From a virus (Duplodnaviria; Heunggongvirae; Uroviricota; Caudoviricetes), in IMG/VR virus record IMGVR_UViG_2703718851_000004, positions 1 through 42,238 of that record: a stretch of DNA of 42,238 nucleotides, one strand, 5' to 3'. Below are positions 6,826 through 37,653 of the stretch, one piece after another. Within the stretch, counting starts at the first letter, position 1; each line of letters starts with the position of its first letter. The notes under the pieces are model-generated. The model worked only from the letters and a program-made list of their open reading frames with translations, had not been told where the DNA came from and did no database searches. Position numbers and translations under genes: made by a program.

Positions 6826-8700
6826 CTACTGCCGGGTAGCTTCGTTAACTAAGAGCGGGCGCACGGCAGTAGCCGCCTGATTTAGCGCTCTTTCATAGGC
6901 TGGTGTTCCTGCTTTGGTGTTTGCCAAGCGTAAGAGAGCATTCCTTGCTGCTTTGGATTCATACAAGCGCATCATTGCACCGAAACCAGCCTCAAGCCCC
7001 ATTGATACGCCAAGAGTCGCAGTTGCGCCAATCGTCCTTATCCTGTTGGCTTGCGATTGCCCCGTCTGAGTTACTACATTTGCGGTGTCTGACCTTGCTG
7101 TTTGCTGTAGAACTTCATGAAGAGCATCAAGTTCTTTCATGTGCTTTCCAGAAAAAATAGTGTTGTAAATTTCACCGCCTGACTGAGATTTCAGCTTATT
7201 AACTTCAGTGATGAACTTGGCTGGAGAGTCACCTGCCTTTTCCGCTATTTTGCTGACGTAAGCTGCACGCATAGCATCTTTCCCTTTATCATCCAATGCG
7301 CTCCAGATTCGTTTCACGTCAGATGGTTTTCTACTTAATACAACGGTATTTATAAGTTCAGGACTGGCTTCACTGCTTGCCTTGTTGAGCTTGTTAGCAA
7401 TGTTTTTATTAAGCACCTTATTATAAACGTTTGCATAATCGGAATTTGCTTTAAGGTATTTTGCTGCGTCTGATGCACCTAGGTTTTTAGCAACTGCGTT
7501 ACGAAGGTCTTTTGACATTGCATTCTCTACCATATTGGTAGCTGCTTTTGCCTGGTTGGGGAAGACCATAGCATCTCCCTGAACATTAGATCTAAATGCT
7601 GTTCTGTGCTGGCGCAAGAGATCAAACGTAACATCCAAATCAGTTGCAGGGTTTGCTAATTCTTCACGTAGGTTACGCAAGGATGTAAGCAGGCTTTGAT
7701 TGGCAGACGTCCCAAGCCGTTCCTGTCTTGCGATCGCTGTATTCAGAGCATTCATGGTATTTGTGGTATCAACTGCGGCATTACCCATTTTATTGGTGAC
7801 GTCATTGATAACAGCGCCAGCGGCATCCTTCCGCCCCCTTAACGTGGTGGTCAGAGATTTCACCACATCATCAGGGTTGTACTCACCAAAACGGTCAAAA
7901 TAATTGCTTACCAGCTTACTACGCGTTGCATATTGCTCCGCTCTCTTTGAGCCTGTCCCGAGCAAAGCCCCCTCGGCATCCTGAGTAAGGCCGCGAGTGA
8001 AAGCATTTTTCGGCGGGATAACATCAGATGTCATTGGTGTCACGCCCATCGATTCTGATGTGGCAATTTTCTTCGCCACTTCTGGCGCAATATCACCTTT
8101 TATAGCCGTTATTCCACGCCCTATTCCCTTTGCTGCTGCGGAAAGAACCCCCTGAGCGGCAAGGTTAACTCCGGCATTTTTAGCTGCATTTTGTGCGAAA
8201 TCGCCTTTCTGATTTGCGGCCTCTGCCAGTGATCCAATAGCCATGCTTCCTGCCGTTCCAACTCCTGGAACTAAATACCCACCAATTGTTTCACCGGCTT
8301 GCGCGTAGGGGTCTGTCGGTCTGTCTACTGGACGATAAACATCATCCAAAACCTTGGGTCCACCAAGCCCCTGACTGATTGCATTAATCAGACTTGCGCC
8401 ACCCTGCAATACGTCAAATGGTATGTTTACCAGACCACGACCAGCCTGTTCTGCAATTTGCCCTGCACTTTGACCACCAGTGAGCCAATCGCCAGCTTGT
8501 TGCATCAATGATGGTTCTTCTTTCTGCTGCTGAGTCGGAGGGTATGCTGCATAAAACTGATCTCTTGCTTCAGCCCATTTGTCACCAGCCTTAGGGGCAA
8601 CAACCTCATCAAAATATTGCGCTTGAGCCTGTGCTTTCTGTTCTTCAGTTAACGCCTGATACTGTGGAGAGGCGATAACATCTTTCCATGCTTTAGCCAT
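6826..8700 (-). CDS. Ejection (injection) protein, P22 gp16-like
   Basis: 624 aa; last of three ejection-protein genes in P22-type order (7, 20, 16). Confidence 0.75.
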
Positions 8701-27898: not shown

Positions 27899-29779
27899 TT
27901 AATACTCCGTCACGTTTTCCTGTCGCCACGCCTCGTCATATTCCGATTTCGGCATATTGGCGATGTAGCTATATGGCGATCCTGATTCAAGTTGCAGGAA
28001 CTGGTGCGATTGCTCGTCAAGGAACAACGGGACACCACCTTCCCAACCTTCGCCGTTACGTTGTTTTTCAAGCATCAAAACAGATGCCGGAGATGCCAGT
28101 AGCTGTTCGTCCTTCTCTGACATCTTTTCACCACTCTGAACTCTCTGTAACGCTCTCTCGCGAGCCTTGTTACGCCAGATGATGAAAAGGTTGTCTGTCA
28201 GGTCTGTTATCGCTCCAGAGCCTTTTACGTCCATTTTCCCGGTTGGTTTTTCTTCGCTGTCTCCTTTTCGCGAGTGAGTAACGAGAATGACGTGGGAGTT
28301 TGTTTTGTTTTTGAAGTCGCAAATCGAGTCAACAAACGCCTTCTGCCCGTTATAGTCATCGTCGCCTATGCCACATTTCATCAGGCTGTCGATGATGAAT
28401 AACTGGATCCCGTATCGGCGGCGAGCGTAGTCGAATATTTCGATCAGCCTGTCGGCTTTCGCCGTTCCGGTCAGACCAAACACCCAAAGTCTTTCGTCAT
28501 AAAATTTAAATGCAGAGTCAATTTCCAGCACTGGCGGCATCTTGCAGCACGTCGCCTGACGGGTAAGGCGCTTAAGGAGAATACCAGGCTTCAGCTCAAG
28601 TGACGCGATGCACGTCTTCACACCCTGACGCATTGCCTCAAGTGCCATATGCCCGACAACCTCCGTTTTTCCGTGACCGTTCACACCATTGACCAGCGTC
28701 AACTCTGCCTCACGGAACTGGAATTTATCTGCCAGAGATTCCCACGGTGGATTAAACAGATACTGCTGCTTGCCGTAGAAAGCGTTGATAGTGTCCTGGT
28801 AAAACTCTCGCGCACTGTAGAGTTCTTCAGGATCGAAGTAGGATGCCGTGCCGATGTACTGCCAGATTTCATCCTCGGTAACACCGTTCATCAGGCATTC
28901 GTTGATGTCTTTGTACGGCAGAGTAACAAGACGGCAACGATGTTCACCGAGTCGGCTTGCGATTTCCCTTGCGGCTTCACGACCAACATCATCAACGTCC
29001 ATCGAGATGAATATTTCCTCAAACCTGTCGAGGTTGTGGTACTCAAACTCAATCCACTGTTGCTTAGCGCCTTTCCCTCCACCAAACGGCACGGATAACG
29101 CCGAGATGCCGTATTGCGCATAGCTCATACAATCAATTTCGCCTTCGCAAAGCACAACCGCCCTCACGCCAGCGTCCAGAGCCTGCCATCCGAACAGACA
29201 AGGTTCGCAATCACCTTCTGCCATAATGACTTTCTTCCCGTCCGGGCGCTCAGTGCTGATTCGCTTGACCTGCAACAACTCACCATCGCGTTTGTACGGA
29301 AGCACCAGTGCATCAAGTTCTCGTTCTCCCTTCCACACCTTGCCGCTGACAACCTCGTAGCGCTTTACGACTTCTGGCGATATGCCACGCGATTGCAGGT
29401 ACTCAAGATGGGATTCTGTTCTGGTAACGTAGCGGGCGATTTTCTTGCGGTCAGGTCTGGAGAATTTCTTCTCACGTTTGGCATCGAAATGGTGATCGTC
29501 ATCCTTGATTCCGAGAAAGGCTTTCGCTTCCTGCATAGCCTGATGCAGGTTAATTCCACGACATGCCATCCACAAATCAAGCATGTCACCGCCGTCTCCC
29601 TCAGCGAAATCAGCCCATTTTTTCTTGCCGCTAAGGTTGACCTTAAGGCTGTTTCCCTTGTCACCGTTGACGTTACCGGCAACCCACTCATGCCCCTCTT
29701 TCTTGCCGTTTGGCAACAGGTGCGGAGCCACCCTGTCAACCTGCGCCCAAAGCAGGTCGCTAAGTTCACTTGGCGTCAT
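27899..29779 (-). CDS. Bifunctional DNA primase/helicase (TOPRIM primase domain + DnaB-like helicase domain)
   Basis: 626 aa; acidic TOPRIM-like region and Walker A GVNGHGKT in C-terminal half. Confidence 0.8.
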   Translation of the reverse strand: MTPSELSDLLWAQVDRVAPHLLPNGKKEGHEWVAGNVNGDKGNSLKVNLSGKKKWADFAEGDGGDMLDLWMACRGINLHQAMQEAKAFLGIKDDDHHFDAKREKKFSRPDRKKIARYVTRTESHLEYLQSRGISPEVVKRYEVVSGKVWKGERELDALVLPYKRDGELLQVKRISTERPDGKKVIMAEGDCEPCLFGWQALDAGVRAVVLCEGEIDCMSYAQYGISALSVPFGGGKGAKQQWIEFEYHNLDRFEEIFISMDVDDVGREAAREIASRLGEHRCRLVTLPYKDINECLMNGVTEDEIWQYIGTASYFDPEELYSAREFYQDTINAFYGKQQYLFNPPWESLADKFQFREAELTLVNGVNGHGKTEVVGHMALEAMRQGVKTCIASLELKPGILLKRLTRQATCCKMPPVLEIDSAFKFYDERLWVFGLTGTAKADRLIEIFDYARRRYGIQLFIIDSLMKCGIGDDDYNGQKAFVDSICDFKNKTNSHVILVTHSRKGDSEEKPTGKMDVKGSGAITDLTDNLFIIWRNKARERALQRVQSGEKMSEKDEQLLASPASVLMLEKQRNGEGWEGGVPLFLDEQSHQFLQLESGSPYSYIANMPKSEYDEAWRQENVTEY

Positions 29780-29886
29780 GATTCCCTCAGATTGAGATTT
29801 TTAAACCAGAAATCGACAAACGAAATACTTAACCAGCCGTGGTTATAACCAGCGACCAGTAGCGATTTGATTTTTGATTTCATGGT

Positions 29887-30747
29887 TCACCTGTCGAAAA
29901 ACACGTAGCCAGTTTTCGATACGGTGATTGCGGATGATGGTTTGGATTGTGGTTGAATAGTTTCTGGCTTCTCGTCGTTCCAGCGTTGACCGTTCAGGTA
30001 GCTCGATGGTAACAACCTGTCGAATCCGAACTGCTTACCATTCCTGCATGCGATGTCTTCTGCCAGCATCGTGGCAAACTCGCTTGCCGTACCCCTGGTA
30101 GTTTTACGCCATTCCCTGAACTGTGTTCTGAATGCCGAAGCCGCGTTTTTCTTCCCGGCTTTCCGCATGCCTGCACACCAGAATATTTCCTCGAATGCCT
30201 TGTCGGTTTCTTCGTGACGGTCAGATGATTTTTCACACTCCGTCCGAACACTTTCGGACATAGTGTTTTTATTATTTCTTTTTTCTTTTGTAATAGTTTC
30301 TTTTGTGTGTCCCTGTTTTGGTGACAGCGCTGTCACCGTTTTGGTGACACTTTTTGTCACCAATGCAGTGACATTATCACCAGAGTAGTGACACCCTTCG
30401 ATTTGCCATTCTTCGATGTTCTTGTTAGGCCCGATTTGCTGGCCTTCGCGAAGGATAACCTTCATCGCGATAAGCTCATTCTTGGCCTTGTTTACCTTCT
30501 GTCTTGGCAGCCTGGTAATTTGAGCTAACTGACTATCAGAAATGCGATCCATCTTTTTACCGTAGCCGTATGTTTTACGGCATATGGCGTGGGCAACCTT
30601 GCTCTGATTTTTCGTTAAATCTGCGCCGATAAGCTCTTCATACAGGGCATTTGCAAGACGGGTATAACCATCTTCAACTTCTGCCACACGACGCTCCACA
30701 GGCCGTTGTGAAGGCCTTAAATGTGTTACGGTTGCAAGATTACTCAT
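29887..30747 (-). CDS. Replication initiator, phage O-like (N-terminal replisome-organiser domain)
   Basis: 286 aa; N-terminal region resembles phage O N-terminal domain; iterons and AT-rich tract inside the gene. Confidence 0.75.
30321..30394. repeat. Origin-like iteron cluster inside O-like gene
   Basis: Repeated GTGACA/TGTCAC units including perfect 16-bp palindrome GTGACAGCGCTGTCAC, adjacent to AT-rich tract ~30246..30310. Confidence 0.6.
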
Positions 30748-30886
30748 GACCTTTCTCCTTCTGCATCAGCTTCACTTTTTCCAACTCAGCCCGGAATCGA
30801 CCAGGCTGCTTGAAGCTGGACAGGAAGCGATCACGTAGTATGTGTTTGTGAATTTTGTCCTGGTAAGGACTGAGTTGTTTTGTCAT
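30740..30886 (-). CDS. Small hypothetical protein between cII and O-like gene
   Basis: 48-aa ORF translated by hand ([21 protein letters not shown]...), GGAG RBS, overlaps O-like start. Confidence 0.3.
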
Positions 30887-30898
30887 AATGACTCCTGT

Positions 30899-30972
30899 GG
30901 ATTGATCCAGTAATGACCTCAGAATTCCATCTGGATTTGTTCAGAACGCTCGGTTGCCTCCGGGCGTTTTTT
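30899..30972 (+). ncRNA. oop: oop-like antisense RNA overlapping 3' end of cII
   Basis: Sequence matches lambda oop RNA from memory; ends in hairpin plus TTTTTT; antisense to cII stop region. Confidence 0.65.
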
Positions 30973-31212
30973 ATTGGTGAGAATCGAAGCAACTTGTCGT
31001 GCCAATCGAGCCATATCGTCGTCGACGACGCCCCATTCAAGAACAGCAAGCAGCATTGAGAACTTTGGAATCCAATCCCTCTTCCACCTGCTGATCTGCG
31101 ACTTATCAACTCCCACAGCTTCCGCTGTCTTCTCAGTTCCAAGCATTGCGATTTTGTTAAGCAACGCACTCTCGATTCTTAGAGCCTCGTTGCGTTTGTT
31201 TGCACGAACCAT
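30919..31212 (-). CDS. cII: Transcriptional activator CII
   Basis: 97 aa from [35 protein letters not shown]..., matches lambda CII from memory. Confidence 0.92.
31190..31203 (+). promoter_or_regulatory. CII-binding site of pRE (TTGC-N6-TTGC)
   Basis: TTGCGTTTGTTTGC within cII 5' end, on the strand reading toward cI. Confidence 0.75.
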
Positions 31213-31291
31213 ATGTAAGTATTTCCTTAGATAACAATTGATTGAAGGTATGCAAATAAATGCATACACCATAGGTGTGGTTTAATTTGAT

Positions 31292-31323
31292 GCCCTTTTT
31301 CAGGGCTGGGATGTGTAAGAGCG
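31292..31323 (-). promoter_or_regulatory. nutR (boxA CGCTCTTACACA and boxB GCCCTGAAAAAGGGC)
   Basis: Minus-strand sequence CGCTCTTACACATCCCAGCCCTGAAAAAGGGC between cro and cII. Confidence 0.85.
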
Positions 31324-31331
31324 GGAATGTC

Positions 31332-31547
31332 TTAAGCGGCTTTGTGTTCCGGCGGGAACACGTCATCAAGACTGACTTTTGCGCCTAACTTGTTTAGGCA
31401 CTCAACAAGAGCACGGCATGTTTTAAGGTCTGGGAAGCGACGACCAGATTCCCAATGTCCGATAGCTCCCTGTGTGCATCCAACTGCCTTAGCAAGTGTT
31501 GTTTGAGAGATATTCAGTGACTCTCGATATTTTCGTAGGTTGCTCAT
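31332..31547 (-). CDS. cro: Cro-like repressor (XRE-family HTH), non-lambda
   Basis: 71 aa from MSNLRKYRESLNISQTTLAKAVG... with GGAGGG RBS; divergent from cI. Confidence 0.8.
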   Translation of the reverse strand: MSNLRKYRESLNISQTTLAKAVGCTQGAIGHWESGRRFPDLKTCRALVECLNKLGAKVSLDDVFPPEHKAA

Positions 31548-31575
31548 ATGCCCTCCATAGTAACCATGAAACAAT

Positions 31576-31649
31576 AATACGATATGTACTTTTAGAATGC
31601 AAACAAAAAATACATCTTGTGCATGGATGGTTTTAGTACAGAGCGTAAT
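31576..31649. promoter_or_regulatory. OR region with divergent pR/pRM and candidate operator sites
   Basis: Two 15-bp sites with dyad AGTAC-N5-GTACT character: AATACGATATGTACT (31576..31590) and AGTACAGAGCGTAAT (31635..31649). Confidence 0.5.
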
Positions 31650-31658
31650 AATAAGGGT

Positions 31659-32318
31659 ATGAAAATGAAATGGTATGAACTGGCTAGATCCAGAATGAAA
31701 GAGCTCGGCATAACTCAAGAGAAGTTAGCTGAAGAGCTTGGTATGACGCAGGGTGGAATTGGTCACTGGTTGCGCGGATCTCGTCATCCATCTCTTGACG
31801 AGATTGGTGTGGTGTTTAAATACCTTGGTATTGATAACGTCTCATTCAACCACGACGGTACATTTTCACCTGTTGGCGAATACTCATCTGCCCCCGTTAA
31901 AAAACAATATGAGTACCCTGTTTTTTCTCATGTTCAGGCCGGGATGTTCTCGCCTGAGCTTAGAACCTTTACCAAAGGTGATGCGGAGAGATGGGTCAGC
32001 ACAACCAAAAAAGCCAGTGATTGTGCGTTCTGGCTTGAAGTTGAAGGTAATTCCATGACCGCGCCAACAGGATCCAAGCCAAGCTTTCCTGACGGGATGT
32101 TAATTCTCGTTGACCCTGAGCAGGCTGTTGAGCCAGGTGATTTCTGCATAGCCAGACTTGGTGGTGACGAGTTTACCTTCAAGAAACTGATCAGGGATAG
32201 CGGTCAGGTGTTCCTACAGCCACTAAACCCGCAATATCCAATGATCCCATGCAATGATAGCTGTTCCGTTGTAGGGAAAGTTATCGCCAGCCAGTGGCCT
32301 GAAGAGACATTTAGTTAA
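31659..32318 (+). CDS. cI: CI prophage repressor; LexA-like S24 C-terminal domain, non-lambda N-terminal HTH domain
   Basis: C-terminal ~130 aa nearly identical to lambda CI from memory; N-terminal DNA-binding domain differs; start 31659 or 31665. Confidence 0.9.
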
Positions 32319-32350
32319 CAGCCTCACCACTCTAAAGCACACAACAATAA

Positions 32351-32378
32351 CCCGACCTTAGTGTCGGGTTTTCTTTTT
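32351..32378 (+). terminator. Intrinsic terminator after cI
   Basis: Stem CCCGAC/GTCGGG with loop CTTAGT followed by TTTTCTTTTT. Confidence 0.7.
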
Positions 32379-32443
32379 CCAAAATATAAACCCATTAAAT
32401 ACAAAGCGTTATAAAAAACCAATTATATTTAGAACATTTTGTA

Positions 32444-32472
32444 TTGACTCGATAAAGTACAAATCGTACTAT
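32444..32472 (+). promoter_or_regulatory. Candidate pL promoter with overlapping OL operator
   Basis: TTGACT, 17-nt spacer, TACTAT; dyad site AGTACAAATCGTACT (32456..32470) overlaps spacer and -10. Confidence 0.5.
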
Positions 32473-32512
32473 TTAGCCATCAGCAGGACGCACTAACCAC
32501 CATTGAAGGTGA

Positions 32513-32543
32513 GGCTCTTAAAAATTAAGCCCTGAAGAAGGGC
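32513..32543 (+). promoter_or_regulatory. nutL (boxA variant GGCTCTTA and boxB GCCCTGAAGAAGGGC)
   Basis: GGCTCTTAAAAATTAAGCCCTGAAGAAGGGC upstream of N. Confidence 0.85.
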
Positions 32544-32653
32544 AGCATTCAAAGCAGAAGGCTTTGAGTAGCGCGAAATGCAGCTGCAAGACAGCAACCG
32601 TGGAGATAAGCATCACGGCGCGTTACTCAAAGCTAACTGACAGGAGAATCCAG

Positions 32654-32986
32654 ATGGATGCACAAACACGCCGCCGCGAACGTCGCGCAGAGAAACAGGC
32701 TCAATGGAAAGCAGCAAATCCCCTGTTGGTTGGGGTAAGCGCAAAACCAGTTAACCGCCCTATTCTCTCGCTGAATCGCAAACCGAAATCACGAGTAGAA
32801 AGCGCACTGAATCCGATAGACCTTACGGTGCTGGCTGAATACCACGAACAGATTGAAAGCAACCTGCAACGTATTGAGCGCAAGAATCAGCGCACATGGT
32901 ACAGCAAGCCACGCAGTGAAATGGGTGTGACTTGTGTTGGTCGCCAGAAGCAACGCGGAAAATCAATTCCAGCTTATTACGATTGA
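32654..32986 (+). CDS. N: Antiterminator N
   Basis: From MDAQTRRRERRAEKQAQWKAANPLLVGV..., matches lambda N from memory; AGGAGA RBS. Confidence 0.9.
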   Translation: MDAQTRRRERRAEKQAQWKAANPLLVGVSAKPVNRPILSLNRKPKSRVESALNPIDLTVLAEYHEQIESNLQRIERKNQRTWYSKPRSEMGVTCVGRQKQRGKSIPAYYD

Positions 32987-33536: not shown

Positions 33537-33633
33537 AATGTCGCTCGTAACTAAACAGGAGCCGACTTGTTCTGATTATTGGAAATCTTCTTTGCCCTCC
33601 AGTGTGAGGGCAATTTTTTTTGATGGAGGATAT

Positions 33634-34602
33634 ATGAGTGAAGTAACAGATTTAGTTGTTATTGAAAAAGCAAATGCAATGACTGTATTTCAGTCTGCCG
33701 ACCAGATTGAAGAAATTCTCCAAAAGGTTGAACGTGAAGTTATGTCCTTTGTGCCTGATATCACAACGGCAAAGGGCAGAAAGGAGATCGCTTCTCTGGC
33801 GTATAAAGTTGCGCAGACGAAAACATATCTCGATGGTCTTGGCAAAGACCTTGTTGCTGAACTGAAGGAAATTCCAAAGCTAATTGATGCCAACCGCAAG
33901 ACAGTGCGCGATCGCCTTGATGAACTGAAAGCCAAGGCGCGCCAGCCTCTTACTGATTATGAGGAGGAACAGGCACGGATTAAAGCCGAAGAAGAAGCTA
34001 AGGCAGCAGCTGAAGCTCTCGCAAAGCAAATTGAGTCTGACCATGAAATAGCGATTTTGATGGATCGCGAATTTGACCGCAAAAGAGAAGAGGCAAGACT
34101 CAAAGTGGAGCAGGAAAAGCGAGAGCATGAAGAACGCTTAAAAAGAGAAGCTGAAGAGAAAGCCAGAGCAGAAGCCGAAGCAAAGGCAAAAGCCGAAATT
34201 GAAGCAGCAGCAAGGCGAGAAGCAGAAGCTAAGGCAGCAGCGGAACGTGCAGAGCGTGAACGCATTGAAGCCGAGCAACGAGCACAGCGCGAAGCAAAAG
34301 AGGCAGCAGAACGAGCTGAAAGAGAAAAGCAGGCGGCAATTGAAGCAGAACGCCGAAAAGCACAGGAGGAGGCTGAACGAATCCGGCGCGAGGCTGAAGC
34401 AAAAGAGCAAGCCAGAATAGCAGAAGAAAAAAGAATCAAGGAAGAAGAAGAGCGTAGAGCAAAGGATAAAGCTCACCGGAAAGAAGTAAATAACAAAATA
34501 CTTGCTGACCTTATCAAGGTTGGTGCATCAGAAGATGTTGCTAAAAATATCATAACAGCCATCGTAAAAGGCGAAGTATTCGCAACAAAAATAACCTACT
34601 AA
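33634..34602 (+). CDS. Hypothetical protein with long A/E/K/R-rich coiled-coil segment
   Basis: GGAGGA RBS before ATG 33634; central ~170 aa of repetitive EAKA/ERAE-type sequence. Confidence 0.7.
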   Translation: MSEVTDLVVIEKANAMTVFQSADQIEEILQKVEREVMSFVPDITTAKGRKEIASLAYKVAQTKTYLDGLGKDLVAELKEIPKLIDANRKTVRDRLDELKAKARQPLTDYEEEQARIKAEEEAKAAAEALAKQIESDHEIAILMDREFDRKREEARLKVEQEKREHEERLKREAEEKARAEAEAKAKAEIEAAARREAEAKAAAERAERERIEAEQRAQREAKEAAERAEREKQAAIEAERRKAQEEAERIRREAEAKEQARIAEEKRIKEEEERRAKDKAHRKEVNNKILADLIKVGASEDVAKNIITAIVKGEVFATKITY

Positions 34603-35151: not shown

Positions 35152-35757
35152 ATGAGCAAAGAATTTTACGCAAGACTGGCAGTTATTCAGGAGAATCTGA
35201 ACGCGCCAAAAAATCAGTACAACTCATTCGGCAAATATAAATACAGAAGCTGCGAAGACATTCTTGAAGGCGTTAAGCCGCTACTGAATGGCCTGTTTTT
35301 ATCAATCAGCGATGAAGTTGTGTTGATTGGTGATCGGTATTACGTGAAAGCCACGGCAACTATTACCGATGGCGAAAACAGTCATACGGCAACCGCCCTT
35401 GCACGAGAGGAAGAAAGCAAGAAAGGAATGGATTCTGCACAAGTTACTGGAGCTACAAGCTCTTATGCACGCAAGTATTGCCTCAATGGTTTGTTCGGCA
35501 TTGATGATGCGAAAGATGCAGATACAGACGAGCATAAACATCAGCAGAACGCAGCAGCAAAGCAATCAAAACCATCACCTACACCTGAACAGGTTCTAAA
35601 AGCATTCACTGACGCAGCAATGCAAAAAAACACCGTAGAAGAGCTTAAACAGGCGTTCGCCAAAGCGTGGAAGATGCTCGAAGGCACACTTGAGCAGCAC
35701 AAAGCGCAGGAAGTTTACAACATCAGACGAGACGAATTAGAAGGAGCGGCTGCTTAA
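35152..35757 (+). CDS. erf: Erf single-strand annealing recombinase
   Basis: From MSKEFYARLAVIQENLNAPKNQYNSFGKYKYRSCEDILEGVKPLL..., matches P22 Erf from memory. Confidence 0.85.
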   Translation: MSKEFYARLAVIQENLNAPKNQYNSFGKYKYRSCEDILEGVKPLLNGLFLSISDEVVLIGDRYYVKATATITDGENSHTATALAREEESKKGMDSAQVTGATSSYARKYCLNGLFGIDDAKDADTDEHKHQQNAAAKQSKPSPTPEQVLKAFTDAAMQKNTVEELKQAFAKAWKMLEGTLEQHKAQEVYNIRRDELEGAAA

Positions 35758-37111: not shown

Positions 37112-37653
37112 GTGTAACGGTTGAAAAGATTGATGTGTTGTCATTCGTTATAACCGGTGCAGAGCGACTAGATCCGGTTCGAGTGATGATTGAAAACTAC
37201 GAACCTGGTAAGGGAAGAATCACCATCACCTGCTACGGAAAAGCGTGGACTGCGGCTTGGTTTGCTATGGGCGGTGATGATGTGCAGACGTTCATTAAGC
37301 GGGTCAGCAACGAGTATCTAATCGGCTATTTCGACCCTCAACTGCGAAGCACGGTCGACGATGACAACGATGCAAATCTGCTTTTCGTGAAGTCAGAAAT
37401 CATAAAGTTACGAAGAGAGAGAGAAATCGACGCGGTACAGGCTCGAGAAATGTGGGACGAGGCGGAAAACGCCGATGACGTAAAAGAAAGCTGCTGTTGT
37501 TTCGGTGTCGGTAACAAACTGCTGAATCTCTTTGGTGATGATCCGTGGTATGCCGACTGGCCAACGGCACCAAACCCGAAATACCAGTATCTGGAACGCG
37601 TACTTAATGCAGTGAGAGACGGTCTTAAGCAAATAGAGAAGGTGGAACCATGA
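37108..37653 (+). CDS. Hypothetical protein (GTG start)
   Basis: 181-aa ORF with acidic central region and CCC motif; GTGA overlap with upstream stop. Confidence 0.55.
   Translation: MSVTVEKIDVLSFVITGAERLDPVRVMIENYEPGKGRITITCYGKAWTAAWFAMGGDDVQTFIKRVSNEYLIGYFDPQLRSTVDDDNDANLLFVKSEIIKLRREREIDAVQAREMWDEAENADDVKESCCCFGVGNKLLNLFGDDPWYADWPTAPNPKYQYLERVLNAVRDGLKQIEKVEP

Follow-up and report, generated by a model that had tools for sequence, protein, structure and literature searches.

The virus record IMGVR_UViG_2703718851_000004 (Caudoviricetes; 42,238 bp, analyzed over its whole length and referred to here as the window) carries, between the genes cro and N, a lysis/lysogeny switch in which a CI repressor with a lambda-type C-terminal domain bears a DNA-binding domain unlike that of lambda. 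We conclude that this region is very probably the immunity module of a P22/HK620-like prophage and that it represents a known immunity type, that of the Shiga toxin (Stx) phage VT2-Sakai (repressor class CI2c, Cro class Cro4). The window is oriented opposite to the lambda map. An original prediction, made from the sequence letters, had described a chimeric repressor, new operator dyads, and an interval after cI too short for rexAB. Its structural observations largely stand, but the novelty that it implied does not, because the region is 93 to 94% identical in DNA to a known type whose operators are annotated and whose chimeric repressor is published.

Identity with a known immunity type

The 1.4-kb stretch from cro to N was 99 to 100% identical in phage Dewey and in several Escherichia coli chromosomes (megablast), and the DNA spanning cro, the right operator region (OR), and cI was 93 to 94% identical in VT2-Sakai, the Stx1-converting phage of Morioka V526, Stx2 II, Nil2, 2851, 1717, and the PA series. 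CI was identical to the Stx1-phage CI at 210 of 216 residues (97%), and Cro to the Stx1-phage “putative cro” at 70 of 71 (99%). The GenBank records of an Stx1-converting phage (AP005153) and of VT2-Sakai (AP000422), which date from about 2000 to 2003, annotate pR, pRM, pL, and a terminator of the pRM transcript, together with six 17-bp “putative operators,” three in OR and three in the left operator region (OL). The immunity-specific segment (31326..31907, at a coverage of at least 80%) was recovered from 63 phage records and from 773 of 5,426 complete E. coli genomes, and the full 1.4-kb arrangement, with an empty gap after cI and a lambda-type N, was present in 203 E. coli genomes.

The type is also established in the literature. 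Smith et al. (2012, PMC3430580) classed the repressor of VT2-Sa, Stx2 II, YYZ-2008, and 1717 as CI2c and the Cro of these phages as Cro4, and they described lambda CI (CI2a) as having a carboxy terminus in common with CI2c and a unique amino terminus. Fattah et al. (2000), as cited in PMC10742460 and PMC9803871, is the source for high C-terminal and low N-terminal homology of VT2-Sakai CI to lambda CI. The Sakai phage is taken to have six operator sites, OR1 to OR3 and OL1 to OL3 (PMC9803871, PMC4587872; also PMC10742460), and Nil2 is one of eight reference lambdoid regulatory regions (PMC2903704). The mosaic CI, the Cro, and the putative operators of the VT2-Sakai type have been on record since about 2000.

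Relative to the VT2-Sakai (Sp5) group, which includes AP005153, Stx2 II, Nil2, 2851, 1717, and the PA/PST1 phages, the window is alike in CI, Cro, the positions of the six operators, and the layout of pR, pRM, and pL, and its terminator is of like design. The DNA divergence of about 6 to 7% lies mainly in the spacers between operators. The surroundings differ: the module lies here in a P22/HK620-like podovirus prophage and there in an Stx phage, its flanks are lambda-type cII and N/nutL here and HK022-type cII and H-19B/HK97-type N there, and the interval from cI to OL is 78 bp here but about 1.5 kb, with H0093 and H0092, in VT2-Sakai. Closer relatives, 98 to 100% identical over the 1.4 kb from cro to N, are phages Dewey, Louie, vB_EcoP-720R6, vB_EcoP-683R2, and phi458 and the prophages of E. 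coli S163-2, TUM9754, and EC100. Dewey and the three chromosomes share with the window the empty slot after cI and the lambda-type N, whereas phi458 fills the slot with a 348-amino-acid (aa) open reading frame (ORF) and vB_EcoP-720R6 has a nutL-N spacer of 219 bp instead of 61 bp.

Repressor, Cro, operators, and promoters

CI is a LexA/CI-family repressor in which a helix-turn-helix (HTH) domain is joined to an S24 peptidase domain with a Ser/Lys dyad and an Ala-Gly cleavage site. Residues 84 to 219, comprising the linker and the peptidase domain (Pfam Peptidase_S24, 8.9e-29), were identical to lambda CI at 133 of 136 positions (98%), with codon Tyr84 (TATGAGTACCCT) marking the exact junction. 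The cleavage and catalytic motifs are all retained and identical to those of lambda, namely, Ala-Gly in QAGMF (which begins at residue 93; the lambda equivalent is 111), the Ser nucleophile in GNSMT, and Lys in FTFKKL. Given this identity, RecA-stimulated autocleavage and prophage induction would be expected. Residues 1 to 83 form the HTH_3 domain of the VT2-Sakai type (Pfam, 8.3e-11 over residues 11 to 58), whose similarity to lambda is weak and at a generic HTH level (E values of 7e-4 to 6e-3 against lambda N-terminal-domain chains, and 1.2e-4 for the best chain, in a PDB sequence search). The recognition helix begins with a glutamine that aligns with lambda Q44, and acidic residues of helix 2 align with E34 and D38, the positive-control residues in lambda. 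The earlier reading of CI as an essentially lambda C-terminal domain on a different HTH domain is therefore borne out, and so is its claim that Cro is unlike that of lambda.

Cro gave no BLASTP alignment with lambda Cro, and its HTH_3 match (Pfam, 1.4e-12) places it in another fold class. It is 35% identical to the N-terminal domain of CI, and the recognition helices are nearly alike (TQGAIGHW in Cro and TQGGIGHW in CI), so that competition between the two proteins for shared sites would be expected, as is the case for 434 repressor and 434 Cro. A comparison with other immunity types, which the original prediction had proposed, matched the VT2-Sakai group and left lambda, 434, and P22 unmatched. 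The N-terminal domain reached marginal E values against 434 repressor (0.28) and P22 c2 (0.36) in PDB sequence searches, and the corresponding matches of Cro were also marginal; imm-lambda was rejected on the weak alignment of the N-terminal domain, the missing Cro alignment, and the absence of lambda operators at OR and OL. The same searches returned no solved structure for the CI N-terminal domain or Cro, the closest chain to Cro being an 82-aa “lambda repressor-like protein” (E = 2.4e-16). Outside the VT2-Sakai group, the nearest relatives of the N-terminal domain are the c2/cI repressors of Salmonella phages L, epsilon34, g341c, and SPN9CC (about 54% identity over 67 to 83 aa), which, judged by that identity, probably have a different operator specificity. 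The VT2-Sakai record describes the VT2-Sakai Cro as similar to C2 of phage L.

Operator coordinates were mapped onto the window by alignment from the annotated putative operators of AP005153 and AP000422 (Table 1). The original prediction had proposed three dyads of the form AGTAC-N5-GTACT; all three are present and correspond to OR1, OR3, and OL1, of which only the OL site is perfect, while OR2, OL2, and OL3 were missed. The annotated operators of the known type thus agree with the sites that had been proposed. With at most one mismatch, this dyad occurs three times in the 42,238 bp, only at these sites, against 0.47 expected, and none of 100 shuffled sequences reached three. A degenerate dyad pattern matched exactly at five of the six operators and nowhere else in the window; when one mismatch was allowed, it gave 13 matches against 9.1 expected, which is no better than chance, so that only its exact matches are informative. 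Each operator is identical to its VT2-Sakai counterpart at 15 or 16 of 17 positions (15 for OR1); apart from a single half-site change in OL3, the two sets differ only in the center or at the outermost bases. Across the 12 half-sites AC never varies, and their consensus, A(A/G)TAC(A/G), differs from the TATCACCGC of lambda. A search for lambda-type 17-mers with up to three mismatches found none at OR or OL, and the one match elsewhere in the window, at 7809, is no more than chance would give.

The sites are also conserved. A phylogenetic footprint was drawn from 8 to 10 relatives with a divergence of about 6%. Variation affected 3 of the 60 columns that make up the half-site cores (ten per operator), compared with 38 of 105 other intergenic columns (Fisher P = 3.6e-6). 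Two of the three core changes stay within the motif, one moving towards the consensus (GTGCA to GTACA in OR2 of Dewey) and one passing between permitted half-sites (AGTAC to AATAC in OR3 of 2B8), and the half-sites of OR2 are kept across 10 relatives while its center varies. Motif statistics, positions relative to promoters, and this footprint together support the six sites as putative operators that CI would bind.

Of the promoters, pR and pL were found by a consensus promoter scan, and pR lies where the VT2-Sakai and Stx1-phage records annotate a “putative major rightward promoter.” The -10 hexamer of the putative pRM (AATAAT), followed by 6 nucleotides (nt) and the ATG, mirrors the arrangement of lambda pRM, in which TAGATT is followed by 6 nt and the ATG. 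This geometry suggests a leaderless cI mRNA from pRM. Both cI ATGs (31659 and 31665) are kept in 10 of 10 relatives, and cI products in databases have 217, 219, or 231 aa. The second, in-frame ATG is preceded by AAGG 8 nt upstream and could serve transcripts from pRE, which, as in lambda, would be marked by the TTGC-N6-TTGC repeat of the lambda-like cII/nutR block.

As had been claimed earlier, cI is followed directly by a terminator, pL, and nutL. The terminator hairpin (-12.1 kcal/mol, z = -2.85) resembles the VT2-Sakai “terminator for pRM transcript” (L007:4912-4940), with a compensatory stem change (CCCGAC/GTCGGG versus CCCGGC/GCCGGG) that suggests selection on the hairpin. Lambda homology resumes at the transcription start of pL. 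The boxA-like element of nutL compares with CGCTCTTAA for lambda boxA, and the VT2-Sakai nutL annotation likewise begins GGCTCTTTAAA.

Table 1. Features of the immunity region and its flanks (window coordinates; operators are putative)
Feature	Position	Strand	Description
Lambda-like block	30879..31325		cII and nutR (contains pRE); 96.9% identical
cII	30919..31215	-	Pfam Phage_CII, 2.5e-48
CII-binding repeat of pRE (presumed)	31190..31203	+	TTGC-N6-TTGC; establishment transcription through antisense cro towards cI
Non-lambda block	31326..31907		cro, OR, cI N-terminal domain
cro	31332..31547	-	71 aa; HTH_3 (all-helical, XRE-type) lytic repressor, VT2-Sakai type (Cro4)
OR control region	between cro and cI		111 bp
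pR	31603..31574	-	TTTGCA-18 nt-TATTAT; drives cro, cII, replication genes
OR1	31575..31591		TAATACGATATGTACTT; contains dyad 31576..31590 (AATACGATATGTACT, 1 mismatch); over pR -10 and spacer, center about -16 from pR start
OR2	31608..31624		AAATACATCTTGTGCAT; center about -43 from predicted pRM start, about -49 from pR start
OR3	31634..31650		TAGTACAGAGCGTAATA; contains dyad 31635..31649 (AGTACAGAGCGTAAT, 1 mismatch); over pRM spacer and -10
pRM (putative)	31624..31652	+	TGGATG-17 nt-AATAAT, then 6 nt, ATG 31659; equivalent to VT2-Sakai “putative maintenance promoter for cI”
cI	31659 (or 31665)..32318	+	219 aa (217 aa from ATG 31665)
cI block like lambda cI	31908..32312	+	94.3% of 405 nt against lambda 37637..37233 (blastn)
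Non-lambda block	32313..32477		Terminator, OL
Empty cargo slot	32319..32348	+	30 bp, cI stop to terminator; position of rexAB in lambda
Terminator of pRM/pRE cI transcript	32349..32379	+	AACCCGAC CTTAGT GTCGGGTT, then TTCTTTTT; hairpin 32349..32370 and T tract
OL3	32397..32413		AAATACAAAGCGTTATA
OL2	32430..32446		TAGAACATTTTGTATTG; abuts/overlaps pL -35 hexamer
pL	32444..32472	+	TTGACT-17 nt-TACTAT; equivalent to annotated VT2-Sakai pL
OL1	32455..32471		AAGTACAAATCGTACTA; contains perfect dyad 32456..32470 (AGTACAAATCGTACT); over pL spacer and -10
pL leader with nutL	32478..32566	+	96.6% identical to lambda 35583..35496
nutL boxA-like	32513..32521	+	GGCTCTTAA
nutL boxB	32529..32543	+	GCCCTGAAGAAGGGC; lambda boxB; hairpin found
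Non-lambda block	32567..32627		61-bp nutL-N spacer
Lambda-like block	32628..32910		N; 98.9% identical
N antiterminator	32654..32986	+	Lambda type; Pfam N36, 1.6e-26; outer boundary of region

Operator spacing and the wiring of the switch

In the switch that we propose, the XRE-type HTH domain of CI would recognize 17-bp dyads with the half-site A(A/G)TAC and the core AC-N5-GT, and CI would bind three sites in OR (31575-31650) and three in OL (32397-32471). Lytic transcription would be silenced by occupancy of OR1 and OL1, each of which covers the -10 hexamer and spacer of its promoter (pR and pL, respectively). OR2, about 43 bp upstream of the predicted pRM start and so in a lambda-like placement, would activate cI transcription, and OR3, lying over pRM, would provide negative autoregulation of cI. 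Dimerization, dimer-dimer cooperativity, and RecA-stimulated self-cleavage would be supplied by the lambda-type linker and C-terminal domain, while Cro, as a paralogous HTH protein, would bind the sites of CI and drive lytic growth. We read this circuit from the identity to a known type, the positions and conservation of the sites, and the promoter and terminator matches, and from these we infer operator binding, cooperativity, activation of pRM, and the leaderless cI mRNA.

The operators are not spaced as in lambda. The intervals are 33 bp for OR1-OR2 (32 bp in the VT2-Sakai group, a 1-bp indel) and, in common with VT2-Sakai, 26 bp for OR2-OR3, 25 bp for OL1-OL2, and 33 bp for OL2-OL3, compared with 24, 23, 24, and 20 bp, respectively, in lambda. 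Therefore, OR1 lies one helical turn farther from OR2, and OL3 lies 13 bp farther out, than in lambda, and OR2 does not overlap the -35 hexamer of pR. Relative to the promoters that they would control, the remaining placements stay close to those of lambda: OR2 and OR3 are centered at -43 and about -17 from the pRM start (-42 and -19 in lambda), and OL1 and OL2 at -16 and -41 from the pL start (-17 and -41 in lambda). The tight pair of operators is promoter proximal at OL (OL1-OL2) and promoter distal, relative to pR, at OR (OR2-OR3).

Several points weigh against the switch as we describe it. The wide OR1-OR2 interval makes lambda-style pairwise cooperativity between these sites an assumption, and the OL2-OL3 interval also departs from that of lambda. 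We found no published test of the cognate CI or Cro on VT2-Sakai-type operators, with Fattah et al. (2000) known through the papers that cite it; the published electrophoretic mobility shift assays on VT2-Sakai operators used lambda CI and not VT2-Sakai CI (PMC10742460), and the operator annotations in the GenBank records are all marked “putative.” The start of cI is ambiguous between the two ATGs. Finally, pRM was not picked up by the consensus promoter scan, as would be expected of an activator-dependent promoter.

If the lambda C-terminal domain pairs dimers only at about 23 to 26 bp, OR2 would pair with OR3 instead of OR1, and the VT2-Sakai-type switch might be wired unlike that of lambda despite having the cooperativity domain of lambda. 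We regard this as unlikely. If it were true, repression of pR would depend on OR1 alone or on looping between OL and OR, and induction thresholds would be changed; the module concerned is present in about 14% of sequenced E. coli genomes and in the Sakai Stx2 phage. The remaining scientific interest of the region lies here, in a lambda-type cooperativity domain placed on operators whose spacing is expanded by one turn, where any coupling of OR1 with OR2 would span three turns.

The cargo slot, mosaic boundaries, and alternative explanations

The distance from the cI stop to the N start (32319..32653) is 335 bp, as originally estimated. It contains no genes, only mechanically called ORFs of at most 39 aa, most of them antisense, and no RexA or RexB homologue was found anywhere in the window by tblastn with the two lambda proteins (best E value, 1.5). 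The claim that rexAB is absent therefore holds, and that search found no rex-like gene elsewhere in the window. However, the lack of rexAB is the norm outside lambda, and what the window has instead is an empty form of a variable cargo slot. Because this slot is empty, cI is a single-gene operon with its terminator 30 bp past the stop codon. Dewey annotates a 38-aa “hypothetical protein” (L003:4181-4297, corresponding to about 32480-32596 on the minus strand of the window) antisense to the pL leader and nutL; this annotation is probably spurious, the equivalent in the window being one of several short mechanical ORFs.

We compared the slot (window 32319-32348) with the corresponding loci of relatives (L005:1514-2600, L008:4114-4971, L009:4027-5333, and L007:4089-4906). 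In phi458, 1,087 bp with the 348-aa ORF, which is of unknown function, replace window positions 32313..32348. Phages 2B8 and E212 carry a 285-aa NYN-domain protein, PhiR57_1 carries two ORFs matching the PADLOC candidate defense pair PDC-M24A/PDC-M24B (B, 7.3e-10; A, 4.8e-4), and VT2-Sakai carries H0093 and H0092 before the terminator. Pfam and PADLOC scans of the phi458 and Stx1-phage cargo ORFs gave no matches. The slot after cI is thus an exchangeable cargo site that holds candidate defense genes in relatives and rexAB in lambda.

The module is edged by lambda-type DNA on both sides, at the classic limits of immunity substitution, and the region shares with lambda its gene order and logic and the lambda alleles of pRE, cII, nutL, and N in its flanks. 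The nutL-N spacer (32567-32627), which is 109 bp long in lambda, varies in length among phages between flanks that are 97 to 100% identical, and lambda identity within N ends at 32910, the last ~25 residues (32911-32986) being unlike lambda N, so that a mosaic junction lies within the gene. The rest of the window resembles a P22/HK620/Sf6-like podovirus. Its replication module (27899-30747) is not lambda O/P but encodes an O-like initiator (Phage_rep_O, 1.1e-37) followed by a 626-aa Toprim and DnaB-like primase-helicase, and relatives of like immunity carry lambda-type O/P, HK022-type O/P, or DnaC-like loaders. The presence of the same module in such different phages indicates that it circulates among Stx phages, lambda-like siphoviruses (2B8 and PhiR57_1), and P22-like phages. 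Downstream of N and ral, a 354-aa ORF (33538-34602) contains a long, charged, coiled-coil-like stretch rich in Glu, Ala, Lys, and Arg and matches no Pfam family at an E value of ≤0.001.

Other explanations of the region have to be weighed against membership in the VT2-Sakai type. If the C-terminal domain of lambda CI had been joined recently, in one lineage, to a foreign DNA-binding domain with operators not seen before, this would be a new immunity specificity, and lambda identity that is sharp from codon 84 and absent before it has the look of such an event. That look is chimeric relative to lambda alone, however. CI, Cro, and the operators recur in the phage records and E. coli genomes counted above, their annotation in VT2-Sakai and the Stx1 phage is two decades old, and the chimeric nature of the repressor is already in the literature (PMC3430580, PMC10742460). 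The lambda-like part of cI has also accumulated 23 changes relative to lambda, most of them synonymous (94% DNA identity), which makes the junction old, and we consider a recent fusion extremely improbable. A region that is functionally imm-lambda, or cross-immune with lambda, perhaps in part through mixed oligomers formed by the shared C-terminal domain, also seems to us very unlikely. The 98% identity of the C-terminal domains makes heterodimers physically plausible, and the aligned recognition-helix glutamine and acidic helix-2 residues described above also speak for this reading, but the N-terminal domains are related only at a weak HTH level and no lambda-type operator is found at OR or OL even with three mismatches. 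Cross-immunity between VT2-Sakai and lambda is attributed to Fattah et al. (2000) by PMC10742460, through which we know that study, and the same paper gives an apparent dissociation constant (KD) of 3.7 to 6.4 µM for lambda CI on VT2-Sakai operators. These affinities, obtained on single sites, are more than 10-fold weaker than those that the assay gave for lambda CI on the best lambda sites (0.2 to 0.35 µM; PMC10742460), and CI2a and CI2c are taken by Smith et al. to bind DNA differently (PMC3430580).

One could also suppose that the module is not intrinsically compact and that the interval between cI and N is short because rexAB or other cargo was recently deleted from a lambda-like ancestor. 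Relatives of like immunity carry 0.9 to 1.5 kb of cargo exactly at the slot, and the terminator design shared with VT2-Sakai indicates that cargo is clearly lost or gained there by recombination. Against a deletion, positions 32313-32477 retain no rex remnant or lambda homology, and the empty form is itself common, being part of the arrangement found in the 203 genomes. Moreover, the cargo genes of the relatives are related neither to each other nor to rexAB, which argues for independent insertions and not for one ancestral rexAB. We therefore think a recent deletion unlikely and prefer a compact VT2-Sakai-type module with an unoccupied slot.

As a discovery, the region is of little importance, since it belongs to a well-sampled lambdoid immunity type. 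It does offer a natural example of module exchange at classic boundaries, namely, the end of cro, codon 84 of cI, and the start of pL. Its practical value lies in the prediction that this prophage would be homoimmune with Stx phages of the VT2-Sakai/Sp5 type, a point of relevance to superinfection and Stx-phage lysogeny in strains harboring the prophage.

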